A model generated the notes under the pieces. That model searched no databases and was not told the origin of the DNA. It saw only the letters and a list, made by a program, of their open reading frames with translations. Below, in pieces: positions 1-18,849 of a stretch of DNA of 59,996 nucleotides. The stretch is from Candidatus Parcubacteria bacterium (lineage in GTDB: Bacteria > Patescibacteriota > Minisyncoccia > Phycocordibacterales > UBA9973): NCBI GenBank assembly GCA_039795715.1, contig JBDKLD010000008.1, forward strand, positions 1 through 59,996. The letters run 5' to 3'. Every line of letters begins with the position of its first letter. Position 1 is the first letter of the stretch. A program made the position numbers and the translations under genes.

Positions 1-1
1 A

Positions 2-118
2 ACTACTGAACTCAACTGGCTGCTCATTCTTATTTCGCTCGGGGCAACATTCATACTTCTTTTATTTGGGATTTATACTTTCAAAAAAACCGAGCGATAT
101 TTTGCAGATATAATCTAA
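2..118 (+). CDS. ABC-2 type polysaccharide export permease (Wzm/TagG-like), C-terminal fragment; gene begins upstream of window
   Basis: Frame is open from the window edge to TAA at 116-118. The tail NWLLILISLGATFILLLFGIYTFKKTERYFADII is a last TM helix plus the K-x-E-x-x-FAD-x-I ending typical of Wzm/TagG permeases. It lies 40 nt upstream of the partner ATPase. Confidence 0.55.
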   Translation, partial: TTELNWLLILISLGATFILLLFGIYTFKKTERYFADII

Positions 119-157
119 GAGCACAACAACATTATCTAAAGATGAAGAATACTTAAA

Positions 158-1441
158 ATGAAACCAATTATCGAAGTCAAAAACATAAGCAAGAAATACA
201 ACATCTCGCACCAAAGGGGTGGCTATGTTGCGCTCCGCGACACACTCACCACAATGCTTCGCAATCCATTCCGTTTTGCCAAACAAAAAATCAAAAACTC
301 GGTGCAGGGCAAGGAAATTTTCTGGGCGCTCAAAGATATCAACTTTTCAGTACAGAAAGGTGAAGTTATTGGCATCATCGGCAGAAATGGCGCGGGCAAG
401 TCAACGCTTCTCAAAATACTTTCACAAATTACTCCGCCAACGACCGGCGAAATAACACTTCGTGGTCGCGTCGGTTCACTCCTCGAAGTTGGCACAGGAT
501 TCCACCCAGAGCTCACTGGTCGCGAAAACATTTTCCTCAATGGTGCAATTCTCGGTATGAAGAAAAAAGAAATTGCTGAAAAATTTGATGAGATCGTAGC
601 ATTTGCTGATATCGATAAATTCCTCGATACGCCGGTGAAATACTACTCAAGTGGCATGTACGTTCGTCTTGCCTTCTCGGTCGCCGCACACATGGATCCT
701 GATATCTTGATCATCGACGAGGTGCTCGCTGTCGGTGATGCAGAGTTTCAGAAAAAGTGTTTGGGGAAAATGAACGAAATCACCAAAAAAGATGGACGGA
801 CTATTTTGTTTGTGAGCCACAACATGAATGCGATTGAACAGTTGTGCAAGCGAGTAATAATATTGAACGAAGGAGCACTCATATTTGATGGCCCTAGCAC
901 CAAAGGTCTAAAATTGTATGCCAATAAAGGACTTGGACTTGAGCAAGAAAAGAAATGGGAAATAGAAAATGCTCCAGGAAATGCAGTTGTAAAAACCCTA
1001 CGAACATTTACACACGATGCACACTTTGCCACATCTGCAACATTTGATATTACAAAAGAAATCGGCATCACCATTGAGTACCAAGTATTGGAAAAGGGGC
1101 ACATTTTTACTCACGGTATCAACCTTTTCAACCAAGATGGCACCAATGTTTTTAACTCGCACGATGTAACATCGAAACAACGACTGATACAACGGGAAAA
1201 GGGCATGTATGCTTCAACTGTTTGGATTCCAGGTAATACATTAAGTGAGGGTATTTTTACTGTAGGAATAGCGCTATTTAAACCAACTCCATTTATTCTC
1301 CATATCCTACAAGAAAACGTATTAGCATTTGAGGTTATTGATCATGTGCGTGGTGACTCTGCTCGAGGTACATACCATGGAGGATTCCCGGGTATTGTGC
1401 GACCATTGCTCACATGGGAAACAAAAAAATATGAGAAATAA
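158..1441 (+). CDS. wzt: Polysaccharide/teichoic-acid export ABC transporter ATP-binding protein (Wzt/TagH-like) with C-terminal extension
   Basis: Walker A GRNGAGKST, signature YSSGM, Walker B ILIIDEVLAVGD, H-loop VSHN. About 170 extra C-terminal residues, as in Wzt proteins that carry a glycan-terminus-binding module. Confidence 0.85.
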   Translation: MKPIIEVKNISKKYNISHQRGGYVALRDTLTTMLRNPFRFAKQKIKNSVQGKEIFWALKDINFSVQKGEVIGIIGRNGAGKSTLLKILSQITPPTTGEITLRGRVGSLLEVGTGFHPELTGRENIFLNGAILGMKKKEIAEKFDEIVAFADIDKFLDTPVKYYSSGMYVRLAFSVAAHMDPDILIIDEVLAVGDAEFQKKCLGKMNEITKKDGRTILFVSHNMNAIEQLCKRVIILNEGALIFDGPSTKGLKLYANKGLGLEQEKKWEIENAPGNAVVKTLRTFTHDAHFATSATFDITKEIGITIEYQVLEKGHIFTHGINLFNQDGTNVFNSHDVTSKQRLIQREKGMYASTVWIPGNTLSEGIFTVGIALFKPTPFILHILQENVLAFEVIDHVRGDSARGTYHGGFPGIVRPLLTWETKKYEK

Positions 1442-2222
1442 AATTAAGAAAATAATTCCAAAAAAAATTCGAGGTATTTTCTCAAAAATGAAAATGGTTC
1501 TTGGTGACTCGTATTATTTTTTAAAGAAATCAGATGTCACCTATGCTCATGATTCTCTCTATACGTTCCACAACGCAGACTTTTTAAAAGATCCTTTGTT
1601 TATGGAATCATATCGTTTGGGTAAAGAAACTGATAAGGGAATGCTCCTATCAAACTACGATATCGAATGGAGAATTCATACTCTATGTTGGGCAGCAACC
1701 CACGCAATGCATCTTGAAGGTGATTTTGTGGATTGTGGCGTCCACACGGGAATATTTTCTCGAGCAGTTATGCACTTTACCCATTTTGAAAAAAGCCGGA
1801 AAACCTACTACTTGCTTGATACATTTGAGGGTCTATCAGAAAAATACAGCACACCAGAAGAGATCCGACGGAATACTAAAATGGGCTACGACGAGCGAGG
1901 CAACATGTACGAGGAAGTAAAAAAAACATTTAGTAATTTTAACGTCAATATTATCAAAGGAGCTGTTCCGGAAACACTACCGCAAGTTACTTCGGATAAA
2001 ATATGTTTTCTGTCTATCGACATGAACTGTGTTGGACCAGAGCGCGATGCGCTGGAATTTTTTTGGGACAAAATGGTTTCAGGGGGCATTATTATCCTCG
2101 ATGATTACGGCTATGCAAATTCTACAAATGATCAAAAAAAAGCTCATGATGATTTTGCAAAATCAAAAGGAGTAATAGTATTAACTTTACCAACCTGCCA
2201 AGGAATGATTATTAAACCATAA
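1431..2222 (+). CDS. TylF/MycF-family SAM-dependent O-methyltransferase
   Basis: Motifs GDFVDCGVHTG, LLDTFEGL, GAVPETLP, LSIDMNCVGPERDALEFFWDKMVSGGIIILDDYG match the macrocin-O-methyltransferase family pattern. I chose the ATG at 1431, which overlaps the wzt stop; the ORF-track start at 1329 lies inside wzt. Confidence 0.75.
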   Translation: MRNKIKKIIPKKIRGIFSKMKMVLGDSYYFLKKSDVTYAHDSLYTFHNADFLKDPLFMESYRLGKETDKGMLLSNYDIEWRIHTLCWAATHAMHLEGDFVDCGVHTGIFSRAVMHFTHFEKSRKTYYLLDTFEGLSEKYSTPEEIRRNTKMGYDERGNMYEEVKKTFSNFNVNIIKGAVPETLPQVTSDKICFLSIDMNCVGPERDALEFFWDKMVSGGIIILDDYGYANSTNDQKKAHDDFAKSKGVIVLTLPTCQGMIIKP

Positions 2223-2223
2223 T

Positions 2224-2922
2224 ATGGAAACACTCAAAAAAACCTACCGTAGGGTAATGGAATTTGTAAATAAAATTAAGAATCGCCACTCTCTCTCAGG
2301 TGATGGTGAGCGAGTTGACATTACATTTGATGTAAAAATAGACACTACACATTTTGACATGTATCAAATGTCTCACTATAAGAGATACCTATTTGCAGTC
2401 GAAACTATTGCACAGGATGCAATAGTTGCCGATTTTGCTAGTGGTACCGGCTACGGTTCTATATTGCTGGCACAGAAAGCTAAACATGTTGTTGGTGCTG
2501 ATATAAATGACAAGGTAATAGCTACAATTAAAAAAAGGTACGCAACATTTCACAATGTAGAATTTCAAACTGCTGACCTGCTTACTCTTTCATTTGAAAA
2601 TACGTTTGACACTATCATATCATTTGAGACTATTGAACATTTTAAGGAAACAGACATTGCTAAGCTTTTTGCGATATATCAGAAAGCTCTCAGGCCGGGT
2701 GGTACTATTATTTTCTCTACACCATACATGCAGGAAAAAACTGAGGTAGCGGTAAATATGGGTTTTCACTTTACCTTTGATATAGATGAGCAGAAAATTG
2801 CAGACTGGCTTAGTACAGCTGGTCTCACTATGGTGACTTGTAAGTATCAGAATTACGAAACTCACAACATTGTCGACTCCCAAGAAAAGAAAGATTTTAT
2901 TATTTGTGTAGTGAAAAAGTAA
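2224..2922 (+). CDS. Class I SAM-dependent methyltransferase
   Basis: SAM motif I VADFASGTGYGS, acidic motif II GADIN, post-I/III FDTIISFETIEH and RPGGTIIFSTP. Starts 2 nt after the previous stop. Confidence 0.75.
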   Translation: METLKKTYRRVMEFVNKIKNRHSLSGDGERVDITFDVKIDTTHFDMYQMSHYKRYLFAVETIAQDAIVADFASGTGYGSILLAQKAKHVVGADINDKVIATIKKRYATFHNVEFQTADLLTLSFENTFDTIISFETIEHFKETDIAKLFAIYQKALRPGGTIIFSTPYMQEKTEVAVNMGFHFTFDIDEQKIADWLSTAGLTMVTCKYQNYETHNIVDSQEKKDFIICVVKK

Positions 2923-3779
2923 TGAAACCAACCGTGTCTATTTGTATACCTACCTACGAGCAAACCGGATATTTACAGAAAACCCTTGATTCAATTATTG
3001 CCCAAACATATACCGACTACGAACTAATTATTTCTGACGATTCAAAAAGTACCTCAGTTGAGGACCTGCTCGGAAAATATGGTTTTGGCAACAAACTCCT
3101 GTACGTCAGAAATAGCGAACCCAAAGGGTCACCGGAAAACTGGAATTCAGCTGTCAGACTTGCTAAGGGTAAGTATATTAAAATACTACACCATGATGAC
3201 TGGTTCAAGGACGAGAATAGCCTTTCTATTTTTGTTGAAATGATAGAAAAACATCCCGAATCTGATTTTGCATATTGCGCCACTCAAAATGTAGACGAAA
3301 ACGGCAAATTATTGTCACTGCATACAACAAATCATTCTCAGCTTGCCGCACTTCGCAAACACCCGGAACAGTTACTTTTTCACAACTATATTGGTGCTCC
3401 CAGTACCACTATATACAAGAGAGAAGGAACACTCGAATACGACGACAATCTTATATGGTTAGTTGATATAGATTTTTATATCCAAACACTTCTGTGTAAT
3501 AATAATTGTGTGTATTTAGATAAACCTCTTATTTGTGTTACTTCCAAAGCAGACCACCAGATTACACGGAAGGTTGAAAATGATCGATTTCTCGGTGCTA
3601 AGGAAAATCTGCATATTTACAAAAAAGTACGAAACGCTATCCCCTTCATTTCTTATGTTTTTTTGTTACTCAGATTACTTCGATCAAATAGCTTAATTAC
3701 ACTCGTCGGAGAATATGGCAAACAACTACACTCCACAATTCCATTTGAAATTAAAATCATCAGCTGGCTCAAGAAATAA
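2922..3779 (+). CDS. Glycosyltransferase family 2
   Basis: N-terminal VSICIPTYEQTGYLQKTLDSIIAQTYTDYELIISDDSK is the classic GT2 signature. A later HHDDW is DXD-like. TAATG overlap with the upstream stop. Confidence 0.8.
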   Translation: MKPTVSICIPTYEQTGYLQKTLDSIIAQTYTDYELIISDDSKSTSVEDLLGKYGFGNKLLYVRNSEPKGSPENWNSAVRLAKGKYIKILHHDDWFKDENSLSIFVEMIEKHPESDFAYCATQNVDENGKLLSLHTTNHSQLAALRKHPEQLLFHNYIGAPSTTIYKREGTLEYDDNLIWLVDIDFYIQTLLCNNNCVYLDKPLICVTSKADHQITRKVENDRFLGAKENLHIYKKVRNAIPFISYVFLLLRLLRSNSLITLVGEYGKQLHSTIPFEIKIISWLKK

Positions 3780-3786
3780 AATTAAT

Positions 3787-4542
3787 ATGAACTATCTAAT
3801 AAAAATTATCCCACACCCACTCAAGCTACTTATTGCCAACACACGAGCATACGTGCTTTTTCTGAAACAGTATCGTCATTTTATAAAACTATCAAAAAAG
3901 GGACACAGGTTTAGGGTTAGCTGGAGTGAACGAAATCCTCAGCTTCATGATAACTCCCGAGACACAGGTTTTGATCCCCATTACACATACCATCCAGCTT
4001 GGGCTGCTAGAATTCTCGCAAAAACAAAACCAGCACGACACGTAGATATTTCATCAATACTAAGTTTTTCAACAATAGTTTCAGCATTTGTGCCGACAGA
4101 TTTTTACGACTATCGACCTGCACACATTACACTGAGTGATCTTATCAGCAGAAAAGCCGATCTTACCGCACTCCAATTCTCAGATAATAGTATTGAATCA
4201 CTTTCCTGCATGCACACCATTGAACATATTGGGTTGGGCAGGTATGGTGACACAATCGATCCTGACGGCGACATAAAGGCTATGTCAGAACTTTCGCGAG
4301 TGATTGCGCGCGGCGGCAACTTGCTTTTTGTTACACCTATCGGGAAACCTAGAATTCAATTCAACGCTCACCGTATTTATTCATACAGGCAGATCATTGA
4401 TTATTTTCCAGATCTGAAATTAAAGGAATTTTCCCTTCTGGCGGACGACGGGGGTGGAGACGGCCTGATCATTAATGCATCCGAAACACAAGCAGACTCG
4501 CAAGAGTATGGCTGCGGATGTTTTTGGTTTACAAAAGTATAA
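3787..4542 (+). CDS. Methyltransferase-like protein (DUF268-type, GLGRYGD motif)
   Basis: SCMHTIEHIGLGRYGDTIDPDGD and RGGNLLFVTPIG resemble the DUF268/class I methyltransferase family as I recall it. ATG at 3787 follows the previous stop. Confidence 0.5.
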   Translation: MNYLIKIIPHPLKLLIANTRAYVLFLKQYRHFIKLSKKGHRFRVSWSERNPQLHDNSRDTGFDPHYTYHPAWAARILAKTKPARHVDISSILSFSTIVSAFVPTDFYDYRPAHITLSDLISRKADLTALQFSDNSIESLSCMHTIEHIGLGRYGDTIDPDGDIKAMSELSRVIARGGNLLFVTPIGKPRIQFNAHRIYSYRQIIDYFPDLKLKEFSLLADDGGGDGLIINASETQADSQEYGCGCFWFTKV

Positions 4543-4543
4543 T

Positions 4544-5350
4544 ATGGAAAAAGTATCAGTCATCATACCTACATGGAACAGCGCAAGTACTCTCATTGCT
4601 ACTATTAAAAGTTGCCTCAATCAGACTACTCCACCGTTTGAAATCCTTGTTTGTGATGATGGCTCTACCGACAATAGCGAGGGGGCTGTTAGAGTAATTG
4701 GCGATTCGCGTGTAATTTGGGCTCCTGGTGAACATTCCGGCACACCAGCAATACCAAGAAATAGAGGCATAGCTATGGCTAAGGGTGAATGGATTGCTTT
4801 TTGTGATAGTGACGACGAGTGGTTACCGACAAAACTTGAAAAGCAGCTGGTGTTGGCTAACAACCTAGACTACAAAGCATCGTGTACTGTTGCTTTAGTT
4901 AAAATCGATGGAATAATAACAAAAGAGGTTGTTAGTAGTTGGAAGAAAAATACATTTACTTTTTGTAATGCACTACACAGCAATGATATTGTCGGCAGTT
5001 CAGTCCTGATGCACTCATCAATTGTCAAAGAAATTGGCGAATTTACTCCTATTATTGAAAATGCTAGCTTTGCTGATTATATGTATTGGTTACGAGCAAT
5101 GACAAAAACAAATTTTGCCTATGTATGTGAACCACTTGTTATTTATGATGACCACCCAAAAACAAGCTTGCGTGCAACAAGTCTCTCAGATGAAGCATTG
5201 CAGAAAGTAGTATTTGCAGATTTCACTGATTGGGCAAGAAATCACCTTGGCAATCAAGCACCTGCTTTCATTCTAAAAATTGGTAAATATAAGGCAAGAG
5301 AAAGTGTGCGCAAAATTGTTTCAAAAATATGGCACGTATGGAAAAAGTAA
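4544..5350 (+). CDS. Glycosyltransferase family 2
   Basis: VSVIIPTWNSASTLIATIKSCLNQTTPPFEILVCDDGSTDNS, plus the DXD-like AFCDSDDEW. ATG at 4544 is 2 nt after the previous stop. Confidence 0.8.
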   Translation: MEKVSVIIPTWNSASTLIATIKSCLNQTTPPFEILVCDDGSTDNSEGAVRVIGDSRVIWAPGEHSGTPAIPRNRGIAMAKGEWIAFCDSDDEWLPTKLEKQLVLANNLDYKASCTVALVKIDGIITKEVVSSWKKNTFTFCNALHSNDIVGSSVLMHSSIVKEIGEFTPIIENASFADYMYWLRAMTKTNFAYVCEPLVIYDDHPKTSLRATSLSDEALQKVVFADFTDWARNHLGNQAPAFILKIGKYKARESVRKIVSKIWHVWKK

Positions 5351-6960
5351 AAATCGGCATCCTCTATATTTGCACCGGCAACTACACTGTTTTCTGGAAG
5401 GACTTTTATGAGAGCATGGAAAAGTATTTTGCGACTGACGCTGAAAAACATTACTTTGTCTTTACCGATGCCGATCACATAGAGCACGGGGTAGATGCGG
5501 CTGGAAACAAGAATCCGTATATTCATCGCATCTACCAGAAAAACCTTGGTTGGCCAGGCAATACGCTCAAGCGTTTTCACATGTTTCTTGGCATCGAAGA
5601 GGAGCTAGCAAAGCTCGATTACCTCTTTTTTTGCAATGCCAACTTACAAGTTCTTCAAACAATTTCTGCCTCCGATGTTTTACCAACTGGAGAAGAAAAG
5701 CTTGTTGCGACACTTCACCCAGGTTTTTATGCAAAACCACGTAGGAAATTTACTTACGAAAAAAATAGGAAGTCGATAGCATACATAAACAAAAGCGAAG
5801 GCGAACGCTACTTCGCTGGTGGTTTCAATGGCGGTACAAGTTCAGCTTTTATCTCTGCAACGAAAAAGATGCGAGAGCAAATTGATGCTGATGAGAAGAA
5901 TGGCGTAGTCGCTCGCTGGCATGATGAATCACATTGGAATAGATATTTGGTCAGTCGCACAGATGTAAAAGTCCTCTCTCCTGCTTTTCTCTATCCAGAA
6001 GGCTGGTCCCTACCTTTTACTCAAATTATTCTTGTACGAGACAAGAAAAAGCTTGGTGGCCACAATACAATGCGCAACAGCAAAAACTCGCTAAAGGATG
6101 TAGTAATAACATGGGCAAAAACGTTCATTAAAAACCTTATCTTGCTTGCGAAGCCGACCTCAAATACGACACATTTCATTCAGAAAAAATCACTTTTCTC
6201 GACACTTGACCAACACGAGCTAAACAGAAAAAACCTGATATGTATAACAATTGCTTTCAACAAAAGTACTGTAATTGAAGCGCAATGGAAGCAATTATCA
6301 GAGAACATTTCTGAGTCTTTCACCTACATAGTTGCTGACAATTCAAATGATGCAACTGTGAGTGCCGAGATACAGAATTACTGCGCTCAAAATTATATTT
6401 CATACGTTAAAATTCCAAATAATCCATTCGAGAAAAACCCAAGTCGCTCACATGGCATTGCGCTCAATTGGGCCTATGAACATATTGTAAAAAAGTACCG
6501 GCCAACGTATTTTGGTTTTATCGATCATGACATTTTGCCATTTAGGAAAACAGCAGTAACCGACAAAGTTCAAAATGGTATTTTTGGCCTCGCGCAGAAG
6601 CGTAACGAAAAATGGTACTTGTGGCCAGGATTTTCTTTTTTTAAGACATGTGAGGTAATAGAAAAACCACTAGATTTTTTACCATGCGACGGACTCGATA
6701 CTGGTGGCTCAAACTATGATGTGCTATACAAAAATATTGATCAGGCAACTCTTTCACAACTCCCACAGTACTATTTTGATATTGAAAAGAGAGTAAAGTT
6801 GCCAGCTTTTGATCACGCCAACCAAAACATAGTTGAAACTATTGGTGACTGGGTACACCTTATGAGAACTTCCAACTGGCATGGCTTGTCGCCAGAAAAA
6901 TCAAATAGTACTAAGAGTATCGAAGCTGCAGTAAAAACAATTCAAGAAATCGCATTATAG
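5329..6960 (+). CDS. Two-domain glycosyltransferase: N-terminal GT6 (ABO/alpha-1,3-Gal(NAc)-transferase-like, NXN type) fused to a C-terminal GT-A/GT2-like domain
   Basis: The N-terminal ~250 aa align by eye with human GTA/GTB blocks: HYFVFTD, LDYLFFCNANLQV (NAN in place of DVD), LVATLHPGFY, FTYEKNRKSIAYINKSEGERYFAGGFNGG, ARWHDESHWNRYL, KVLSPAFLYP. The C-terminal ~240 aa have ICITIAFNKS...YIVADNSND and FIDHDILPF (DXD-like). Confidence 0.85.
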   Translation: MARMEKVKIGILYICTGNYTVFWKDFYESMEKYFATDAEKHYFVFTDADHIEHGVDAAGNKNPYIHRIYQKNLGWPGNTLKRFHMFLGIEEELAKLDYLFFCNANLQVLQTISASDVLPTGEEKLVATLHPGFYAKPRRKFTYEKNRKSIAYINKSEGERYFAGGFNGGTSSAFISATKKMREQIDADEKNGVVARWHDESHWNRYLVSRTDVKVLSPAFLYPEGWSLPFTQIILVRDKKKLGGHNTMRNSKNSLKDVVITWAKTFIKNLILLAKPTSNTTHFIQKKSLFSTLDQHELNRKNLICITIAFNKSTVIEAQWKQLSENISESFTYIVADNSNDATVSAEIQNYCAQNYISYVKIPNNPFEKNPSRSHGIALNWAYEHIVKKYRPTYFGFIDHDILPFRKTAVTDKVQNGIFGLAQKRNEKWYLWPGFSFFKTCEVIEKPLDFLPCDGLDTGGSNYDVLYKNIDQATLSQLPQYYFDIEKRVKLPAFDHANQNIVETIGDWVHLMRTSNWHGLSPEKSNSTKSIEAAVKTIQEIAL

Positions 6961-6997
6961 AAAAAAGCTAACAATACGATAAAATACACACTGGCAA

Positions 6998-7870
6998 CTA
7001 CCACCTCTCCTTGTACACGCGAACCAAATAGTACCAAAGTTTTTTCGGCATTATTTTTTCTATTACAGCAAAGACCGAATACAGACCAACACGTAGCATT
7101 GCCTGAAAATAACCGATGGCAAACCCTGGATAATCATCGCGGTAGTTTTTGAGCATATTCAAAATTCTTCGTAGCTGTACAATCTTGTTTTTTCCGCTGA
7201 GACTTTCCTTTCGAACCATAAGTGTCACTGCGTAGAGCGAGATGTTGGCAAGTGTTCCCTCTTTGCCCATACGCAACCAAAAATCGTAGTCTTCTACGTG
7301 TCGCAAATCTTGCGACTCTTCATAGCCTCCGAGCTTGACCGCAATATCTCTACGGAACATTACCGAAGAATGAATAAAGCAATTTTTCCTATGCAGTGTA
7401 TTTCTTATTTCTCTGTCAGTCGCAGGAAGTAAGTAGCGCATTGTTTCTTGACCACTTTCATTTACCAAAATCGCTCCCGTACCAACAAGCACACAACTCT
7501 GCTCTTTTTCAAAAATACCGACTTGCATTTCAAGCTTGGCAATATCATTCCACGTATCGTCATCATCAAGTCTCGCGATGTAATCGCCTTTCGCCATGCT
7601 TATACCTCGGTTAAGTGATTTCTGAATGCCAAGGTTTGCCTCATTTTTGATATATATAATTCTCGAGTCATGAGTAGAAAAATTCACCACAATTCCCTTT
7701 GTGTCATCGGTAGAACCATCATCGACGATGATGAGTTCCCAGTTTGTGTAGGTCTGCGCTAATATACTTTCAATTGCAGACAGAATACGCGCCGAACCAT
7801 TATATGTCGGCATAATAATACTTACTAACGATTTTTCTGTAGTTACATTCATGTCTATATTCGTATCCAT
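6998..7870 (-). CDS. Glycosyltransferase family 2
   Basis: VSIIMPTYNGSARILSAIESILAQTYTNWELIIVDDGSTDDT and ARLDDDD (DXD). Confidence 0.85.
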   Translation of the reverse strand: MDTNIDMNVTTEKSLVSIIMPTYNGSARILSAIESILAQTYTNWELIIVDDGSTDDTKGIVVNFSTHDSRIIYIKNEANLGIQKSLNRGISMAKGDYIARLDDDDTWNDIAKLEMQVGIFEKEQSCVLVGTGAILVNESGQETMRYLLPATDREIRNTLHRKNCFIHSSVMFRRDIAVKLGGYEESQDLRHVEDYDFWLRMGKEGTLANISLYAVTLMVRKESLSGKNKIVQLRRILNMLKNYRDDYPGFAIGYFQAMLRVGLYSVFAVIEKIMPKKLWYYLVRVYKERW

Positions 7871-8730
7871 GTTGGAGGCGTAAGCGTACTTGTGTCTATA
7901 CTCTCGTCAGTAAACCAACGTTTTGGTGCTATGACTATTTTATCAGTATATGGGGCAAGCCATGCTGACCACCAAGAAAATGAGCTATTGGCAATAATGA
8001 AATGCTTGCACTGACTCATGAGATACATATGCTCTTCATTTTTTTTACCCGCATATTCTTGTCCGACATACACCACATTGTCCCCAAATAGCATGTGATC
8101 CCTGCACCATGCAATATCATCTGAAAATACATACATGGTTTCTATTGTAGTTTTTTGTTTGAGTAAATTAATCGCCGAGCCATAGTATTCTTTACCGACA
8201 GTTTCGTGGTGTACATTACCAACAAAGTCACCTCGTCTCACATGTACGCAGACTGCATTTTTTGATTGTATCTCTTTGGCAAGTTCCTGTGTTTTTTCAC
8301 TTACCTTTTCTTTTAGTCTAAAATCGTTGCGAATAACTTCTTCGTACTCAAAAAAATATTTGTAACTTTGCCAAAAACCACTCAAGTACGTATTGTTAGA
8401 GAGCTCAAGAATCGTAGCGTCAAAAGCAAATTTTTTTTCTACGCCATTTTTCTTTTGTAATTTACCAATAGTAATGTCAAATAATCTTGCCAAGAAAGGG
8501 CTGCGCAAACGATAGATAAAAGGGATTTCAGAAGGCTTCGCTATTCTTCCTGTAATACCAAAGACATCGAGATCAAAATGTCGAATAGTATCATTGTTAT
8601 ATGCAGGCTTCTTGCCGAGAGTGCTCGTATCAAGGCCGAGTTCAGTTGTATGTTTCAATGACAACACTCTTCCCACCGCATACTGAAACATTTGGTTCCC
8701 CAAGCCACCTGATAAACGTGTAATAATCAT
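7855..8730 (-). CDS. Alpha-1,2-fucosyltransferase (GT11, FutC-like)
   Basis: MIITRLSGGLGNQMFQYAVGR at the N-terminus, HVRRGDF (HxRRGD motif) and ANSSFSWWSAWL are the three GT11 motifs. Start taken at ATG 8730; the ORF track extends to 8751. Confidence 0.85.
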   Translation of the reverse strand: MIITRLSGGLGNQMFQYAVGRVLSLKHTTELGLDTSTLGKKPAYNNDTIRHFDLDVFGITGRIAKPSEIPFIYRLRSPFLARLFDITIGKLQKKNGVEKKFAFDATILELSNNTYLSGFWQSYKYFFEYEEVIRNDFRLKEKVSEKTQELAKEIQSKNAVCVHVRRGDFVGNVHHETVGKEYYGSAINLLKQKTTIETMYVFSDDIAWCRDHMLFGDNVVYVGQEYAGKKNEEHMYLMSQCKHFIIANSSFSWWSAWLAPYTDKIVIAPKRWFTDESIDTSTLTPPTWIRI

Positions 8731-8744
8731 ACTGCCTTTGTATA

Positions 8745-9632
8745 TTACCAATTGAGCTCAATTTCGGGAACTTTGCCACTTTCTGTGATGTATTTTACAA
8801 TGTCGAGGTATTTATCCTGCTGACTTGGGTCAAGAAGAGCCAGTCGCTTGAGTATGACGACGAGGTGTGAACTGTCTTTCTTTTTATAGAAATAGGTAAA
8901 CATTTTTTTGTAGGCTGCACGAGTTAAATTCACATCTTGATTAAAGTTACTTGAAAGTGCAGCTTCCAGGTGTTCTAGTGCGCGCGGCATGTACTCAGGC
9001 ATGTATTTATCATTTTCATATACCAAAAACTGTCCAAGAAAATACTGGATCTTGGGCGCATGCGGATCAACTGCGAGCGCTTTCTTGTAAAGGTCTATTG
9101 CCTCTTGATGTTTGTTTTGATTGTAGAGGTTTAGCCCATAGCTCTCTATTAATTTCTGATAACTGGGGAACAAATTGAGCGCTTCTCTGTAATAATGCTC
9201 AGCGTCGGCAAGATATTCCTGCTTCTTCGCTGGATCACTTTCATTAATTGCCAAGGTGTCATAAGTATAACTAATATAAATATAGCTATTGATATACGGC
9301 GTTGTAGTTAGCAAACTTTCCTTGATTTTATCGAGCGTAAATGGAATGAGTTTTGGCGCGATTTCCCTCTCTCCAGTATTGAATGTAGAGACCATAAACG
9401 CCAAGAAAACGTACCGGAGCATGGGCTGAACATGAGTATACGGAGTAAAAAGCGAAGCATCTTTGGTGACGACGGTATAGTCATAAGTATCGATAGCTTT
9501 TTGATAGGCTTTGTGGAGCCTAATAATCTGACTGTTCGGCACAAGCGTCCATGCAACAAAGGCTATGCCGAAAAAGAGCGTCGCGACAATAAGAGAGATT
9601 TTTATGACGATGTAGTTGTTAGACTCTTTCAT
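8745..9632 (-). CDS. Membrane-anchored TPR-repeat protein
   Basis: N-terminal TM helix (IVIKISLIVATLFFGIAFVAW) followed by TPR-like A-x-x-Y-Y-x-x-A-L-x-x-x-P repeats (AEHYYREALNLFP, AIDLYKKALAVDP). Confidence 0.6.
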   Translation of the reverse strand: MKESNNYIVIKISLIVATLFFGIAFVAWTLVPNSQIIRLHKAYQKAIDTYDYTVVTKDASLFTPYTHVQPMLRYVFLAFMVSTFNTGEREIAPKLIPFTLDKIKESLLTTTPYINSYIYISYTYDTLAINESDPAKKQEYLADAEHYYREALNLFPSYQKLIESYGLNLYNQNKHQEAIDLYKKALAVDPHAPKIQYFLGQFLVYENDKYMPEYMPRALEHLEAALSSNFNQDVNLTRAAYKKMFTYFYKKKDSSHLVVILKRLALLDPSQQDKYLDIVKYITESGKVPEIELNW

Positions 9633-10917
9633 AATGAGTAAATACCAGAAAAGCGGCTATCGAATAGAGCGCGAGGTACGACACGGCAACATCGAATCCG
9701 AAAAGGTTATTCACAAAAAAAGCCACCAGAAATACAAGTGTGACCAAACCAAATGGGAAATGCTCTCTCATTAGCCTTAGGCAATATTTAAACAGAAAAA
9801 ACCAGATCGCCATATACGAAATGAGTCCAAGTATGCCCGACATCACGAGCACATCAATGAGCTTATCATGGGCTCTATCCGCAATGAGTTCTTCGTATTG
9901 AAAAATACTCGGGTCGTAGTTTTGTTGGTAGAAGAAGACATAGTTGTCCCAGCCCCAACCAAGGAGCAAGGTTTTGGTGTTTGAATGTCCGAAAAATCCA
10001 TTGATCGAAAGTTTGGTAATTTTGGCTCGGGAAGCAATAGTCTCGCCAGCGAGGTTAGAAGTTGCGACGCGATTTAGACCGGGGATTTTCTGCCAAAAGT
10101 CCGCGTGCCGCGTAGAAAGGAAAATTCCTGAGAAAACAATGATCGCCACAAATACAAGCAGAGTCCAAAAGCGTAGGGTTTTACCCCAGAGCATCCTAGC
10201 CTTGCCTTTTACCGCTACTACAACGAGCCCGACGAGAACTGCCACAAAAAGCGCCAGTATGCCCGCCCTCGACTGTGTGAGGAAAACACCGATGATACTA
10301 GCCAAAATAGTAGCTACGCCAAAATACATGGTAAGTATCCTTTTGTTTTTCCTAGCTTCGAGGAAAACATACCCACCCGTTGTCAGAGCGAACAAGTAGT
10401 ACGTACAAAGGTACATAGGGTTACCGAGCCATGCATCAGGCCGTGCACCAGAGTCTGCGACTTGGAATAGTGTAATAACGAAAGTAAACATGCCGACAAT
10501 AGATGTCAACAAAAAGTATCTGTTCCAATCTTTTTTTTCAAAAACCAATGCCATAAGGAACAGGAAGGCGGAAAATGAAAAAATAGTGAGAAAACCTTCA
10601 GTCCTCGATATCTCACCGAAAAAAGCAAAAGCTTTGTTGTAGGCAAAGAGCGTCGACAAAGCGAGCAGAGCGGTGCTTGCCGCAACCGCTATAACCAGTC
10701 GATTGCGTCCAAGCTTTGCCATCCTATCGAGTAAAACTTTACAAAATGGATTATTTTTTCCTAGGAAGATGAGGAGCGCAATCAGAAAAAGAACGCCGAA
10801 AACCAAACCGCGAATAAATACAGTTTTCCCTCCGACATCATCAGAATATAGGTGTGGCGACCGTATGAGAGGCAAAAGTACAGAAAGAGTAATTGCGGAA
10901 ACTATTGCCTTTCTCAT
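9619..10917 (-). CDS. O-antigen ligase / Wzy_C-domain polytopic membrane protein (possible glycan ligase or O-oligosaccharyltransferase)
   Basis: About 10-12 predicted TM helices, a large loop, and TQSRAGILALFVAVLVG, which is typical of the Wzy_C (O-antigen ligase) domain. Confidence 0.65.
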   Translation of the reverse strand: MRKAIVSAITLSVLLPLIRSPHLYSDDVGGKTVFIRGLVFGVLFLIALLIFLGKNNPFCKVLLDRMAKLGRNRLVIAVAASTALLALSTLFAYNKAFAFFGEISRTEGFLTIFSFSAFLFLMALVFEKKDWNRYFLLTSIVGMFTFVITLFQVADSGARPDAWLGNPMYLCTYYLFALTTGGYVFLEARKNKRILTMYFGVATILASIIGVFLTQSRAGILALFVAVLVGLVVVAVKGKARMLWGKTLRFWTLLVFVAIIVFSGIFLSTRHADFWQKIPGLNRVATSNLAGETIASRAKITKLSINGFFGHSNTKTLLLGWGWDNYVFFYQQNYDPSIFQYEELIADRAHDKLIDVLVMSGILGLISYMAIWFFLFKYCLRLMREHFPFGLVTLVFLVAFFVNNLFGFDVAVSYLALYSIAAFLVFTHYERV

Positions 10918-10918
10918 A

Positions 10919-11638
10919 TTAGTTGAGCGTCTTGAGTCGATCTATTTCATTTTGGTAGATAGTTTTGTTTTCTGGATGAACTTCTATCGCCTTTTGCCAA
11001 GTTGCTATTGATTCAGCTATTTGTCCATTGCGCTCTGCAACGCCGGCAAAATAGGTGATGAGGTTAATCTTGGTTTCTGATCTTACTTTTGTTAGACCTT
11101 CATTATATATTGCTTTTAGCTGAGAATAATTAGTAGAAGTCTTTTCATCTAGCAATCCTATTTTCCAATTCCAATAATCAGCAAATGTAGGCGCTAGCGC
11201 GATAGCCCTGTCTATTGTTAGTTGTGCATTTTTCAAATCTTCTTGCGCACTATAGACCGTAAACAGTCCGGCAAGTGCTGTATCGTCATTTCTATATTTA
11301 AATGCTTGATTGTAATAACTAATTGCTAATTTATAATCTTTAGCAAGAAATGCTTTGCTCGCACTTGCCATAGAAGCATTGTATTTCTTACTAATTTCCC
11401 CATCTGCAGCCACAGAAGTAGTAGAGGTTGTAGCTTTTGGTTCATCCTTAGATACCGGAGTGAAATCAGCTGGGGTTTTGTCATCAATATTTTCGTTTGC
11501 CTTTGGAGTACCGGTCTCTGACTCAGATTCAATATTGCTAGTTTTGGGCATTTTAAAGTAGTAAATCCCCCCAATTACCAAAACTGCCACAATAGCTAGT
11601 ATTATAAGATTTTTATTAGTGTTTTTTTCGCTGTTCAT
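10919..11638 (-). CDS. Membrane-anchored TPR-repeat protein
   Basis: TM helix LIILAIVAVLVIGGIYYF, a low-complexity linker, then TPR-like repeats (AISYYNQAFKY, AIALAP, ATWQKAIEVHP). Start moved to ATG 11638, because the track start 11674 is a GTG inside a terminator hairpin. Confidence 0.6.
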   Translation of the reverse strand: MNSEKNTNKNLIILAIVAVLVIGGIYYFKMPKTSNIESESETGTPKANENIDDKTPADFTPVSKDEPKATTSTTSVAADGEISKKYNASMASASKAFLAKDYKLAISYYNQAFKYRNDDTALAGLFTVYSAQEDLKNAQLTIDRAIALAPTFADYWNWKIGLLDEKTSTNYSQLKAIYNEGLTKVRSETKINLITYFAGVAERNGQIAESIATWQKAIEVHPENKTIYQNEIDRLKTLN

Positions 11639-11664
11639 TTTGCTATTAAACCATACTGGAATAC

Positions 11665-11692
11665 AAAAAACCACCCCGAGGGGTGGTTTTTT
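11665..11692 (-). terminator. Rho-independent terminator downstream of the surface-protein gene
   Basis: aaaaaaCCACCCCgaGGGGTGGtttttt: GC-rich stem flanked by A and T runs, so usable in both directions. It lies about 57 nt after the stop at 11749. Confidence 0.7.
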
Positions 11693-11748
11693 GTTGCTTT
11701 TACAAGCAGACTACCTAGACTAGATTCAACCTTAGATAAACTAAACTA

Positions 11749-14700
11749 TTAGTTTACACGCATAGTTTGTGTATCTGTAGGAAGATTCTTTACTAACAAA
11801 GCATTGTTCCAGTCAAGTGTTGTAGCATCATGACTTACAGCTGATGTATCAGTCCAGATAAATGTAGCCTGGGCTGAGTTAGCAGCAGCAACCGTAGCAT
11901 AAGCAACAGGAGCTGCGTATGTATCAGGTTGAGCAATACTTACGTTAATATTATCATTAACAGTTGGTGTGAACGCTGTTGTGAGCTTCAACACATATGT
12001 CTTCGTACCACTGATTTGTTGCTCATTTGTCGCAACAAATGTGATTCCGCCAGCAGTATCGCTGTCAGTTTCTACTGATCCTGTGAAGGCAGCAGTACCG
12101 GCGATTTGTGTGTTGGTATCGTAATCCCACAATGTAGGCGAAGCAAGAGTATCTGTACCAGACATCGCACGAGTTACAGTAAAGATAATCTTCTTCCATC
12201 CAATAGTTCCACCCTGTGAAGCGACAGTGAACTTAGCAGCAGTTACAGTTCCTGTGCTGAGTATTGCTGTAGGGAGAGCAACGTTTGTAATTACAGGAAT
12301 TGCTCCGTAAACATACATCGCGTTACCAGCAGCACCACTTATAGTACCTGCAGCAGTAACACCAGTTGCTAGTGAACTTGCTGTAAAGGCAGTAAGGGTA
12401 GTGAGTAATGAAGCTCCTGATGTACCAGCGCCAATACCTACTGTACCCAAAGTGAGTTTAACAGTGAGGATCTTGCTAGTGTTAGCAGGAATATCCCAGT
12501 TAAGATCGTAGAAGTTTACAGTTGCTGCACCCGCAAGTGATGCGACCATAGTAGCACCATCATAAAGCGCGACACTAGATACGTTTGTAGCATCTGCAAT
12601 TGTAAATGTTAGATCTTTAACTTTGTAGCCAGCAGTAACCGCTTGGAACTTCAACGCTGAAGTAGTTATAGTTTGATTGTCATAGACAATACCTGTAACT
12701 GGAGCAGAAGCATCCAAAGAGGCAGTTATTGAAGCTGCGCTACTAATAATAGTTTGGCCAGCAATTGTAGTGGCAGCATCACCAGAAAAGACAGATTGTC
12801 CACTAGTCATTGATGTACCAGTTACCTTAAGAGCAATTCTAAATGAATCACTCGTAGCAACCGCAAAAGAAGCGCCTGCAGCATTCAAGCCATTATCTGC
12901 AAGATTTGCAAACATTTCAATTGTAAGGTTCTGATTCTTTGGCAATGTGTAGCCGATATTGAAGCTATTGCCTGTAGCTGTAACTGTAGGGAGAGGAGTT
13001 GTCTGAGCAACTACTGTGCCAGCACTATTCTTTACTACCGCGTATACATTTTTAAGATCACCAAATTCAAAAGTTGTATTTGTGACCGTTGGGACTGCAA
13101 ATGTAAGCGTATTCAAGTTAATATCTTCAATCGAACTACCCGAAAGATTGTATGAAGCAATCTTAAATGCTGTCGATGGAAGTACTGTTGACTGGTTTGC
13201 GTAAGTCGCATTCTTTGCCAAAGTTATTGATGTTGTCGCAATTGTAAGCTGGTTTGCTGAAACATCAGATGATGGTGCATTGAATGAACCAAGAGAGTCC
13301 GTTCGCTGTGCATTTGATGAACCAGTAATAATCTTTGCAAGGATAGTGTCAGAAGCATCAAGTGCCATACCTGACTGAAGACCATCATTGTCATAGATAT
13401 CAGCATGTAATTCAACCATTATTGGAGTACCTGGCATAACAGTGTAATTGACTGTGAACGTTGTTCCAGCTGGAACAAGAGTTGCATTTGAGCCATATTG
13501 ACTTCCGTTAATCAAGATACGGCCGTTACGGAGAGTAACTGCAGTATTGTTTGTTGAGCCAAGTGATCCATCAAATGTACCGCCTGCAATAAGTGTCTCG
13601 ATTTTGATCGGTTCACCGTATGCAGTTACCTTGAAGGTTCCGAGATTTACATCGGTACCTGCCAAAGTAAGGTTAGTTGAAGGCGATGAAACATCCTTTT
13701 CAATCGTAAGTGTTCCACCTGTAGCACCAGAAATAGTACTTGCAGATGATGGAGCCCAAGGAGTTGAAGTAGGAGTAATGTTTACACCAAAGCTTGAGTC
13801 AACAAAGTCTACGTCTGCTGCCTGACGAAGTGAAAGTTGTACTGTGCGTGAAGCACCAGATACAATGTCAGCTTCAACACGGACAACACGTGAGCCAGAA
13901 ACAAGCATGACTGGAGCAGAACTCATGTCAAAGGTTACATAACCCATTGAATCCATTCCTGCTGCTGAACCAACTTGTGTGCCATTTACGTAAAGCTTGA
14001 AGTTCTGGAAAGCACTAGCTGAAGCTGATCCAACGTTGCGAAGAGCGAGTCTCTTCATCCACACATCTCGGTTTGAGATAGTGAGTGTATCTTGCCAGAG
14101 AGTAACAGCTGACCCAGGATTGAGTGTTGCACCACTTGGAGTCGCACCCAAGTGAGTGACTGACGCAAGTGTTGCTGAAGCAATAGTATGAATATTGCCT
14201 GAGATCATTGGGCTAGTAGTACCAGAAGCAGTTGCAAATGACTTGAGCATTACGCCAACTGTTTGGCCTGATGTTAAAGTAAGAATATCAGATTTAACTT
14301 TGATATTCCTCATGCCACTGACAGTGAAAAGACCAGCAGGGACATTGAAAGAAACCATACCGTTGTTTGATACTGAAGCAGCATCAGTCAAGCGAGTAGC
14401 CCCATCAAAGAGGTACACATTTGAAAGAGTTGCATCAGCAGAAACACCGATACGCTGGAGAGTAATGTTAGTTACTGTACCAGTACCAGAGAAGGTGAAG
14501 TGAGCGAGGTCTGCTGTTGCTTGTGCAGCAACGAGCGTGCCAGCAGCTGGGTTGTCAGTAGACAACATAGCGCTAACTGGACCAGTCTGAGTGTTTGGTG
14601 GAGGAGTTGTAGAACCTGTTCCGCAACCCATAGCATTCATCTTTGCACGGCCAGCTGGACCAAAGACGCCGTCTGCTGTGAGACCCATCTTTCCCTGCCA

Positions 14701-14964
14701 AACCTTGACTGCTGCCTTGGTCTTGCTGCCAAACGAAGTTGATTCGTAGCCAGCTGAACCGACACCAGTAGATGAAACCATAGTATCAGCGCACATGTTA
14801 AGAGCTTTTTGGAGCTCCATAACAGCCATGCCCTTTGAACCCTGTTTAAGAGTTGGAGCAGCGAATGTGTATGCGCTTGCAACGCCAGCGCTTGTGAAAG
14901 CGAAGGCGAATGCCGCCAAACCCAAGACCACTTTCGCGGAGTTAGATTTTAGAAATTTAGACAT
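11749..14964 (-). CDS. Secreted peptidoglycan-binding, Thr/Ser/Ala-rich repetitive surface protein (S-layer-like candidate)
   Basis: Signal peptide (VLGLAAFAFAFTSAGVASA). PG_binding_1-like module (LKQGSKGMAVMELQKALN...TKAAVKVWQGKMGLTADGVFGPAGRAKM). TTPPPNTQTG linker. About 900 aa of degenerate ~100-aa beta-strand-pattern repeats with no Cys. Confidence 0.7.
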   Translation of the reverse strand: MSKFLKSNSAKVVLGLAAFAFAFTSAGVASAYTFAAPTLKQGSKGMAVMELQKALNMCADTMVSSTGVGSAGYESTSFGSKTKAAVKVWQGKMGLTADGVFGPAGRAKMNAMGCGTGSTTPPPNTQTGPVSAMLSTDNPAAGTLVAAQATADLAHFTFSGTGTVTNITLQRIGVSADATLSNVYLFDGATRLTDAASVSNNGMVSFNVPAGLFTVSGMRNIKVKSDILTLTSGQTVGVMLKSFATASGTTSPMISGNIHTIASATLASVTHLGATPSGATLNPGSAVTLWQDTLTISNRDVWMKRLALRNVGSASASAFQNFKLYVNGTQVGSAAGMDSMGYVTFDMSSAPVMLVSGSRVVRVEADIVSGASRTVQLSLRQAADVDFVDSSFGVNITPTSTPWAPSSASTISGATGGTLTIEKDVSSPSTNLTLAGTDVNLGTFKVTAYGEPIKIETLIAGGTFDGSLGSTNNTAVTLRNGRILINGSQYGSNATLVPAGTTFTVNYTVMPGTPIMVELHADIYDNDGLQSGMALDASDTILAKIITGSSNAQRTDSLGSFNAPSSDVSANQLTIATTSITLAKNATYANQSTVLPSTAFKIASYNLSGSSIEDINLNTLTFAVPTVTNTTFEFGDLKNVYAVVKNSAGTVVAQTTPLPTVTATGNSFNIGYTLPKNQNLTIEMFANLADNGLNAAGASFAVATSDSFRIALKVTGTSMTSGQSVFSGDAATTIAGQTIISSAASITASLDASAPVTGIVYDNQTITTSALKFQAVTAGYKVKDLTFTIADATNVSSVALYDGATMVASLAGAATVNFYDLNWDIPANTSKILTVKLTLGTVGIGAGTSGASLLTTLTAFTASSLATGVTAAGTISGAAGNAMYVYGAIPVITNVALPTAILSTGTVTAAKFTVASQGGTIGWKKIIFTVTRAMSGTDTLASPTLWDYDTNTQIAGTAAFTGSVETDSDTAGGITFVATNEQQISGTKTYVLKLTTAFTPTVNDNINVSIAQPDTYAAPVAYATVAAANSAQATFIWTDTSAVSHDATTLDWNNALLVKNLPTDTQTMRVN

Positions 14965-15601: not shown

Positions 15602-16444
15602 CTACTTTATCTTATACATACTCCATCGTCGCTCCCCGACCCTTTCAATTTTTCCTTCATCTATTAGTGACTGTAGATCTCGTTGGATGGTCTTAAAGGA
15701 CACATCGGGGAACTCAGCTTTGACTTCGGCAATTGTGCTAGATTCTTTTCCGACAAGAGCCTTTATTATCTTGGTCTTTCTATCATCAAAAGTTGTGGAT
15801 TTGTCTTTTATAAAATTCTTGGTGCCGAATGTTGGAGCAATAGATTTATTAAGGACATTTATTACTAATTGTTCATGTCCTTTATCTTGAATGTCCTTTA
15901 TATGTCCTTTATCACTAGGAGCATCATTGTGCACTGTCCTCAAAGGCTTTTCTGTTTTTTCCACAGGCTCATTCCGCAAAATACTTTCAATATCTATAAG
16001 GCCACCGCGACGTGATTCGTAGCTACCGCCAAGTGCCATAAGTTCAAGCCTCAAAATTCTAAAGTTCATCTCAGAGACAAGAAAAAGTGTCACGCCGACT
16101 TCGAGGTAAGCAATAATTTTCTTGATGATATTATTTATTTCGTTTGAGCGACGATCATAGTTTTCTCCCCTAGTTCCAGCAATGTCATTGGCAACCGAGA
16201 GGAGAGCGAGGCCTGCCTTGCGAATCTCCTTCTGGAGCGGCTCATCTGATGGCAAAATATTGGAAACAAGATAGAGCGCAGTCGTGATATTGCCCGCACG
16301 CTTGGCAGACTGCGACAACGACTTATCCATGGTTTCCAATGCATCCTTTACATGTCCCTTAGAAAGTCCAGTGTCTTTTATGTGATTGTCCTTTTGATTT
16401 TCCATATTGATGAGTATGTCTCTTATGTCTTTTATTATAACCAT
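15602..16444 (-). CDS. Hypothetical DNA-binding protein with C-terminal winged-HTH (DeoR-like) domain
   Basis: C-terminus STIAEVKAEFPDVSFKTIQRDLQSLIDEGKIERVGERRWSMYKIK looks like a DeoR-type wHTH. The N-terminal and central parts carry repeated KGH[IV]KD motifs and a helical region. Confidence 0.5.
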   Translation of the reverse strand: MVIIKDIRDILINMENQKDNHIKDTGLSKGHVKDALETMDKSLSQSAKRAGNITTALYLVSNILPSDEPLQKEIRKAGLALLSVANDIAGTRGENYDRRSNEINNIIKKIIAYLEVGVTLFLVSEMNFRILRLELMALGGSYESRRGGLIDIESILRNEPVEKTEKPLRTVHNDAPSDKGHIKDIQDKGHEQLVINVLNKSIAPTFGTKNFIKDKSTTFDDRKTKIIKALVGKESSTIAEVKAEFPDVSFKTIQRDLQSLIDEGKIERVGERRWSMYKIK

Positions 16445-16469
16445 CAGACATTTGTAAGCAAGCTCGGAG

Positions 16470-16590: not shown

Positions 16591-16659
16591 CCCGCGAGGG
16601 AACTGCTATTTATACTCCGAGCTTGTGTTACAATGTTTTCATCATCTTATATTTAAACA

Positions 16660-18843: not shown

Positions 18844-18849
18844 ACGTAT

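Follow-up and report, generated by a model that had tools for sequence, protein, structure and literature searches.

Could an uncultured, ultra-small bacterium build a surface glycan that carries a blood-group-A-type structure? This question is raised by a stretch of 59,996 nucleotides (hereafter the window), positions 1-59,996 of contig JBDKLD010000008.1 (assembly GCA_039795715.1), from a Candidatus Parcubacteria bacterium. The window encodes a glycosyltransferase of family 6 (GT6) and one of family 11 (GT11). A first-pass annotation of this DNA had read the two as the minimal enzyme pair for a histo-blood-group A/B-like epitope, with GT11 making the fucosylated galactose (Fuc-α1,2-Gal, the H antigen; Fuc, fucose; Gal, galactose) that GT6 requires as its acceptor. 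Our analysis indicates that the pair is a real and probably functional module for an A-type epitope. With moderate confidence, we further propose that the whole A-type glycan pathway outlined below is encoded in this cluster of the Paceibacterota, together with a Wzm/Wzt exporter.

The case starts with the GT6 enzyme. The open reading frame (ORF) at 5329-6960 (+ strand, 543 aa) matches PF03414 (Glyco_transf_6) over residues 3-248 (E=1.7e-38, 132.6 bits against a cut-off of 25) and passes the NCBIfam model NF041524, "family 6 glucosyltransferase" (293.7 bits; cut-off 250). The best solved relative of the domain in the Protein Data Bank (PDB) is BoGT6a of Bacteroides ovatus (E=1e-73, 51% identity, 121/239). 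Both the biochemistry and the structure of BoGT6a have been characterised; it is a metal-independent N-acetylgalactosamine (GalNAc) transferase that converts 2′-fucosyllactose/H-type acceptors into blood-group-A structures (PMC3516806). Functional-residue roles, taken from PMC3516806 and PMC3961637, can be transferred almost entirely: 15 of the 16 functional positions of BoGT6a are identical in the window protein, and the remaining one, I228, is conservatively replaced by V236. The NXN motif (N95-A-N97 in BoGT6a) is N103-A104-N105 in the window and is found in 73 of 78 aligned homologues. The catalytic pair D191/E192 corresponds to D199/E200, and the diphosphate-binding residues K231 and R243 correspond to K239 and R249. 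Acceptor contacts are retained as well, with H122, F125, T134, Y153, W189 and W218 of BoGT6a matched by H130, F133, T142, Y161, W197 and W226. By its family matches and functional residues, the domain belongs to the NXN clade of CAZy GT6.

Three of these positions discriminate for or against fucose on the acceptor. They are H122, G124 and I228 in BoGT6a and H130, G132 and V236 in the window, the residue pattern of fucosyl-galactose-dependent enzymes, and are occupied by Gln, Trp and Trp, which exclude fucose, in α3GalT. All four characterised prokaryotic GT6 enzymes (BoGT6a, WbnI, BgtA and PaGT6) use Fuc-α1,2-Gal acceptors (PMC3516806, PMC4202792). The tie between GT6 and fucosylated galactose that the first-pass annotation had drawn is thus backed by the residues themselves, and we predict the domain to be a metal-independent α-1,3-GalNAc (or Gal) transferase acting on Fuc-α1,2-Gal.

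Which of the two sugars is transferred is a finer point. In the human enzymes, donor choice is set by G235/L266/G268 in GTA and S235/M266/A268 in GTB (PMC4202792). The equivalents of GTA 235, 266 and 268 in the window are G132, A163 and G165, the "AGG" class of BoGT6a, which puts the enzyme in the A-like donor class and suggests that it would use UDP-GalNAc. It is unlikely, in our view, that the pair is functional and coupled while GT6 instead transfers Gal (B-type, as does WbnI of Escherichia coli O86) or another UDP-sugar, giving a B-like or non-human variant epitope. Such a variant would fit a family that holds both Gal and GalNAc transferases, in which human donor choice hinges on very few residues (PMC4202792) and the donor of CPR (candidate phyla radiation) members is predicted from sequence. 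Position 266 is also widely variable among bacteria, its equivalent in 80 genomic homologues being Ala in 30, Met in 17, Gln in 14, Cys in 6 and Ser in 6, so that some bacterial GT6 homologues carry Met there, as GTB does. Against it, the Ala/Gly/Gly of the window at GTA positions 266/268/235 is that of the GalNAc-transferring BoGT6a, not the Met of GTB. Use of UDP-GalNAc, giving an A-type product, is the reading that we retain.

The partner enzyme is encoded by the ORF at 7855-8730 (- strand), which matches PF01531 (Glyco_transf_11; E=2.1e-34, 119.6 bits; cut-off 23.9). Counted from its ATG, the protein is 291 aa long, the length that independent gene calls on identical metagenome contigs arrive at too; the ORF as delimited mechanically starts with a TTG at 8751. 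Its motifs GGLGNQ (residues 8-13), HVRRGD (163-168), FSDD (202-205) and NSSFSWWSAWL (248-258) follow the family patterns GGLGNQ, HxRRGD, FSDD and NSxFSWWxAWL, which 24-26 homologues keep with little or no variation. The GT11 call of the first-pass annotation, motifs included, is therefore sound. A sequence search of the PDB gave no match at E<=0.01. An AlphaFold2 (AF2) model (pLDDT 89) gave Foldseek matches at E 2e-7 to 2e-4, and all 50 PDB matches listed are fucosyltransferases (NodZ, FUT8, POFUT1/2 and AtFUT1). Among these 50, the model thus resembles only GDP-fucose-dependent GT-B fucosyltransferases, consistent with the activity first assigned to it. The closest named homologues (49-57% identity), from Woesebacteria, Paceibacterota and Minisyncoccia metagenome-assembled genomes (MAGs), are annotated as α-1,2-fucosyltransferases. 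The enzyme is accordingly predicted to be a GDP-Fuc:β-Gal α-1,2-fucosyltransferase. Judged by sequence, colitose or another GDP-6-deoxyhexose is a conceivable donor, and the window has no genes for making such a sugar.

Do the two enzymes work together? A genomic scan with one genome per species (185,579 species) returned 428 genomes with a GT6 relative, of which the best 80 loci were examined; at least 20 of these 80 genomes are labelled Patescibacteria. When GT11 homologues are counted at 90 bits or more and within 10 kb of GT6, 66 of the 80 species loci, drawn from several phyla, have both families. GT11 is adjacent to or overlaps GT6 in 22 of the 80, and in one (L031, Magasanikbacteria) both lie in the same ORF; about half of the 14 loci without GT11 are cut by a contig end. 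Fusions of both families in a single polypeptide (GT6::GT11) account for 27 of the 120 GT6 protein clusters listed. In one of them (P0033), GT6 takes up residues 1-238 and GT11 residues 271-527, and the locus begins with a Wzt gene bearing a Wzt_C domain. Two fusion loci were inspected, and in both the fusion is flanked by GT2 genes and has a GT4 gene as a neighbour. Such a conserved neighbourhood with repeated fusion is strong evidence of consecutive steps in one pathway, in agreement with the fucosylated acceptors of all characterised prokaryotic GT6 enzymes. It also lends indirect support to the α-1,2 regiospecificity of GT11, because the acceptor of the GT6 partner is Fuc-α1,2-Gal. The proposed enzyme pair is in this respect upheld by comparative genomics, and in the window both members are encoded in one surface-glycan cluster.

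If GT6 and GT11 were independent, GT6 would act on an unfucosylated galactoside, giving an α-Gal- or Forssman-type product, and GT11 on another residue. The vertebrate α3GalT, iGb3S and Forssman synthase indeed need no fucose (PMC3516806), and four further glycosyltransferase domains in the cluster could create several acceptors. The fucose-excluding residues of α3GalT are absent from the window enzyme, and the conserved adjacency and repeated fusion argue for consecutive steps, which makes independence very improbable. We continue with GT6 and GT11 as successive enzymes.

GT6 also has fusion partners other than GT11. They are Methyltransf_21 (PF05050), in most cases accompanied by an FtsJ-like methyltransferase domain (19 clusters, within P0034-P0074), GT2, Wzy_C (P0056, 740 aa) and DUF268 (P0083). 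Across multi-domain glycan enzymes, GT6 behaves like a mobile module.

The pair sits in a larger cluster. Two contigs identical to the window (L001 and L002) extend it upstream, so that 8.7 kb before its start are covered, and complete the wzm gene cut by the window edge. The features are, in order:

1-118, + strand: 3′ end of wzm (ABC-2 permease; ABC, ATP-binding cassette), cut by the window edge; on L001/L002 a 276-aa gene (PF01061, ABC2_membrane) that ends 40 nt before wzt.
158-1441, + strand: wzt, the ATPase of the ABC transporter, extended at its C-terminus by a putative glycan-cap-binding domain; PF00005 at 1.2e-23, with Wzt_C matched weakly at 5.6e-4.
1431-2222, + strand: TylF-type O-methyltransferase, 263 aa on L001/L002; PF05711 at 8e-17.
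2224-2922, + strand: class I S-adenosylmethionine (SAM) methyltransferase; PF13649 at 1.3e-18.
2922-3779, + strand: GT2 glycosyltransferase (GT2a), 285 aa; PF00535 at 1.3e-21.
3787-4542, + strand: DUF268-type methyltransferase; PF03269 at 2.2e-15.
4508-5350, + strand: GT2 glycosyltransferase (GT2b); PF00535 at 7e-28, overlapping the GT6 start by 22 nt.
5329-6078, + strand: GT6 domain, residues 1-250 of the 543-aa protein, from the PF03414, NF041524 and BoGT6a matches.
6079-6228, + strand: basic amphipathic linker, residues 251-300, from the hydropathy and charge of the sequence.
6229-6960, + strand: domain X, residues ~301-543, a divergent GT2-like GT-A fold, from AF2 and Foldseek.
6998-7870, - strand: GT2 glycosyltransferase (GT2c), 290 aa; PF00535 at 1.3e-38, overlapping GT11 by 16 nt.
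7855-8730, - strand: GT11 fucosyltransferase, 291 aa; PF01531.
8745-9632, - strand: tetratricopeptide repeat (TPR) protein with an N-terminal hydrophobic segment; TPR Pfam matches.
9619-10917, - strand: membrane protein of the Wzy_C/O-antigen-ligase family, candidate glycan ligase or O-oligosaccharyltransferase; PF04932 at 2.7e-10 (40.6 bits, cut-off 31.7).
10919-11638, - strand: second TPR protein, 239 aa; TPR matches.
11749-14964, - strand: 1071-aa Ser/Thr/Ala-rich secreted protein with a weak match to an N-terminal PG_binding_1 domain (Pfam).

The plus-strand operon ends with the GT6 gene, and GT6 and GT11 are convergent, on opposite strands. The 895 bp between them, given as 0.9 kb in the first-pass annotation, are filled by GT2c, which is co-transcribed with GT11 (16-nt overlap) and is EpsE/TuaG-like at scores under the NCBIfam equivalog cut-offs. 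Beyond the correct GT6 call, that annotation had missed three features: GT6 makes up no more than the N-terminal half of a protein with two domains, the two genes converge, and their context is that of an ABC transporter.

Upstream of wzm, L001 encodes a 428-aa polyprenyl glycosylphosphotransferase (PGT; Bac_transf; TIGR03025, 314 bits). Wzt aligns with PDB 8DKU/7K2T at E=1e-70 over residues 53-380, that is, past the nucleotide-binding domain; these structures we take to be the full-length Aquifex WzmWzt O-antigen exporter, including its carbohydrate-binding domain. We assign the cluster to the ABC-transporter-dependent pathway because PGT, Wzm and a Wzt with a C-terminal domain are found together in it. 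No Wzx-type flippase was found among the scanned ORFs, and neither a kinase nor a coiled-coil regulator of chain length could be recognised in the cluster. Judged by its genes, the region is the distal part of a Wzm/Wzt ABC-transporter-dependent surface-glycan cluster with putative terminal methylation.

The arrangement is shared with close CPR relatives. In L006-L010, L012 and L026, PGT, Wzm (~80% identical), Wzt, GT2b, GT6(+X), GT2c and GT11 follow in the same order, GT2c and GT11 again lying on the opposite strand from GT2b and GT6(+X). In these loci the gene at the GT2b position is 48-60% identical to that of the window, and the gene between GT6 and GT11 is 47-54% identical to GT2c. Eight related loci (seven of these listed) hold homologues of the DUF268 methyltransferase at 52-69% identity; no homologue of the TylF-type O-methyltransferase was found in the related loci. 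Homologues of the 1071-aa protein (46-50%) occur in the clusters of L008-L010, and the close relative L167 encodes a 1159-aa protein with the same PG_binding_1 match at the same place. A perfect hairpin with a 14-bp stem (11663-11694) follows the gene for the 1071-aa protein. This protein is a possible acceptor or carrier of the glycan, perhaps a glycosylated wall or S-layer-like protein.

The 543-aa protein itself deserves a closer look. Single-domain bacterial GT6 enzymes end in a C-terminal basic-hydrophobic-basic membrane tail (PMC3516806). In the window protein, a basic amphipathic segment (residues 253-277) follows the GT6 domain, and the protein then continues into a second GT-A domain of ~240 residues. 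The linker holds the most hydrophobic 19-residue stretch of the whole protein (residues 255-273, Kyte-Doolittle hydropathy (KD) 1.09), with a hydrophobic moment of ~0.45 and eight K/R against three D/E. A possible resemblance to the tail of single-domain enzymes would make the linker a candidate peripheral membrane anchor.

Domain X (~301-543) matches no Pfam family above threshold, and a profile search against PDB sequences returned noise only (best E=0.036). An AF2 model built from 15 homologues (pLDDT 92) resembles the GT-A enzymes TarP, BoGT6a, SpsA, GlcAT-P and TarS in Foldseek (E ~1e-5, TM ~0.4). The family has an invariant D399-H400-D401 (DHD) and DNS and DTGG motifs. Weak Pfam GT2 matches occur in 7 of the 15 members (best 9e-4), and one stand-alone relative lies just over the GT2 cut-off. 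The model and these matches identify domain X as a divergent GT2-like GT-A family fused to GT6. Its profile finds 1503 clusters among 1.84 billion representatives (411 at E<=1e-30), mostly stand-alone proteins of 240-300 aa. The GT6+X architecture is common to ~26 protein clusters (33-58% identity), with the domain order reversed in L029 and L080. We considered a sequencing error that joins two genes into the ORF at 5329-6960, and rejected it in view of the same continuous two-domain architecture in these ~26 clusters.

Some GT6+X proteins carry DXD (DAD or DVD) instead of NXN, together with Cys at the GTA-266 equivalent (loci L014, L015 and L018, with GT6 at ~10001-11700, and proteins P0029, P0035 and P0040); presumably they are a metal-dependent form of this two-domain architecture. 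The label on L014 and L018 is Gammaproteobacteria, their contigs being 0.7-0.95 Mb long; L015 is from an unclassified bacterium, on an 11-kb contig.

Which organism would carry this glycan? RecA (19295-20389) is 93% identical to RecA proteins of Candidatus Pacebacteria/Paceibacterota MAGs, and its named top matches are all Patescibacteria. The RecA sequence places the organism in the Paceibacterota, among the uncultured, ultra-small bacteria of the CPR, in line with the "CPR-like" label first given to it. Genes identical to those at 5329-8730 were called independently in four samples, on metagenome and SRA contigs. Outside the cluster, the window holds housekeeping genes (FtsK, RecA, EF-P, several aminoacyl-tRNA synthetases, ThyX, NusG and ComEC). 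G+C is 0.37-0.41 in the glycan cluster (window 1-12000) and 0.44-0.47 in the housekeeping region (16000-30000), a lower value of the kind usual for variable surface-polysaccharide loci. No tRNA or Rfam family was found in the window, and promoter and terminator scans of 1-16.7 kb stayed at chance level (38 found vs 40.6 expected, and 13 vs 13.7).

Several further observations concern the housekeeping part and its counterpart in L167 (GCA_016307145.1, RecA 91%). In the isoleucyl-tRNA synthetase (35788-39288, - strand, 1166 aa), a PF00300 histidine-phosphatase domain (3e-32, residues 503-668) interrupts the class I catalytic domain midway. In ThyX (46042-47388, + strand, 448 aa), the Thy1 domain covers only residues 16-221 and is followed by a C-terminal extension of more than 200 residues without a family match. 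Nucleoside-handling genes are interleaved with ArgRS at 39417-45947: DUF4406 (40161-40997), a PNP_UDP_1 phosphorylase (41040-41906) and a protein with a double DUF1599 "nucleotide modification associated domain 1" (45405-45947). L167 keeps the synteny of TPR, Wzy_C, surface protein, FtsK, RecA and EF-P. After EF-P it has an additional DegT-type aminotransferase and a 439-aa SDR (Epimerase/GDP_Man_Dehyd) at 12457-14964, where the window instead holds a 214-aa ORF without a family match (21850-22880), which suggests strain-level variation in sugar-modifying genes. The GT6 and GT11 match lists contain no protein from the 103.6-kb contig of L167, whose viewed flank ends at the TPR/Wzy_C genes.

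Taken in order, the pathway that we propose would begin with the PGT just upstream of the window, which would prime a lipid-linked glycan. The GT2 enzymes and domain X may then extend the chain, with one of them supplying a β-linked galactose. GT11 would add an α-1,2-fucose to that galactose, giving the H-type disaccharide, and the metal-independent, NXN-type GT6 domain would add an α-1,3-GalNAc to the same galactose. The predicted product is the blood-group-A-type trisaccharide GalNAc-α1,3-(Fuc-α1,2)-Gal-β. The methyltransferases probably cap the chain, after which Wzm/Wzt would export the glycan and the Wzy_C-family ligase would attach it to a surface acceptor.

Several points weigh against this proposal. 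The module is predicted from sequence, and the choice between an A and a B donor depends on three positions. The regiochemistry of GT11 is not guaranteed either, as Helicobacter hepaticus HhFT2 is a GT11 member and an α-1,3-fucosyltransferase (PMC4202792). Finally, gmd, fcl, fkp and manC were not found in the 60-kb window and the 8.7 kb upstream (Pfam; tblastn with E. coli Gmd, Fcl and ManC), and the TPR/Wzy_C genes of this genome occupy the slot where relatives hold fcl/gmd. The check on GDP-fucose supply that the first-pass annotation had asked for is thus negative at the locus itself.

This last point gives rise to an alternative in which no GDP-fucose is made: gmd/fcl would have been lost when the TPR-Wzy_C block replaced them, GT11 would be a relic or use a scavenged or alternative GDP-sugar, and GT6 would be left without its acceptor. 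Among the closest relatives, fcl and gmd come immediately after GT11 in L008, L009 and L012, and no GDP-sugar gene was found in 68 kb of this genome. As a group, CPR genomes are small and auxotrophies are frequent among them, which counts in the same direction. The GT6 and GT11 ORFs of the window are, on the other hand, intact with every catalytic motif present. Furthermore, gmd/fcl are likewise missing within 10 kb from 55 of the 66 loci that carry the pair, which indicates that a distant location is common, and the search covered about 60 kb of the genome. A scan of JGI metagenomes with the Gmd of L009 was uninformative, as none of the 80 loci listed came from 3300043397 or 3300049847, the metagenomes that hold the organism. 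We regard the loss of GDP-fucose supply as doubtful, and the A-type pathway, for which GDP-fucose would have to be available in the cell, as the better account of the cluster.

How does this compare with known systems? [quoted passage not shown] It differs in being a single domain with a C-terminal basic-hydrophobic-basic tail, whereas the window protein has an amphipathic linker and a second GT-A domain, and its host is a Gram-negative gut commensal rather than a CPR bacterium. In E. coli O86, a blood-group-B mimic, both families (GT6 WbnI and GT11 WbnK/WbwK) are likewise encoded in a surface-polysaccharide cluster, and the Fuc-α1,2-Gal made by GT11 is decorated by GT6 (PMC4202792). WbnI transfers Gal (B type), in contrast to the A-like pocket in the window. 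The O86 O-antigen is Wzx/Wzy-dependent. The window cluster, compared with O86, has Wzm/Wzt, methyltransferases and a Wzt C-terminal domain, and has no adjacent gmd/fcl. Helicobacter mustelae BgtA, a fucose-dependent GT6 that acts after a fucosyltransferase, is also among the closest known systems (PMC4202792).

The GT6::GT11 fusions of Patescibacteria and other MAGs (such as P0033, P0076 and L031) have domains that are 57% (GT6) and 33% (GT11) identical to those of the window, where GT11 is instead encoded separately, on the opposite strand, and GT6 is joined to a GT2-like domain. For the export pathway, the nearest examples are E. coli O9a (WbdD/Wzt) and the slg cluster of Geobacillus stearothermophilus (WsaB ligase), both with ABC-transporter-dependent, methyl-capped chains. 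They share with the window Wzm/Wzt with a Wzt C-terminal domain, methyltransferases, multi-domain glycosyltransferases and a Wzy_C-family ligase. Unlike them, the window glycan is predicted to have fucose and an A-type branch.

To our knowledge, the blood-group-like glycans of bacteria have until now been associated with Gram-negative bacteria that live with animals. Such glycans have been invoked to explain natural anti-A/anti-B antibodies and a horizontal origin of the vertebrate ABO gene family. A survey in 2012 placed bacterial GT6 in only four phyla (PMC3516806), and our literature search found no paper that discusses GT6 in Patescibacteria or fucosyltransferases in the Candidate Phyla Radiation. 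Pairing of GT6 and GT11 is already known from gut bacteria, and the NCBI pipeline already names such proteins in Paceibacterota MAGs. The lineage and the fused form are new here; the module differs from the known systems in its CPR host, the joining of GT6 with a further glycosyltransferase domain, the ABC export pathway and the lack of an adjacent GDP-fucose operon. On its own, the finding reveals no new mechanism.

What such a glycan might do for its bearer is a matter of speculation. The immune mimicry that had been suggested finds no support, as the named relatives include MAGs from aquifer, lake and bog and nothing points to an animal host; a function in recognition between cells or in escape from phages is conceivable. 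As a long shot, Paceibacterota/Patescibacteria might be a large, overlooked environmental reservoir of ABO-type GT6 enzymes recombined into cassette proteins (GT6::GT11, GT6::GT2-like and GT6::methyltransferase), and the methyl-capped A-like glycan of this organism, exported by Wzm/Wzt and ligated by the Wzy_C protein to the neighbouring, peptidoglycan-anchored 1071-aa protein, might be a tag for episymbiotic attachment or for evasion of phages or predators on the host cell, not for mimicry towards an animal immune system.

On the practical side, the fused proteins would be compact, bifunctional tools for making H and A antigens chemo-enzymatically, and the predicted epitope would offer a concrete surface target for lectin or antibody staining of organisms that are hard to label or enrich. 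For the family as a whole, the presence of this enzyme pair in aquatic and subsurface ultra-small bacteria, with its specificity determinants intact, widens both the host range and the range of architectures of GT6.

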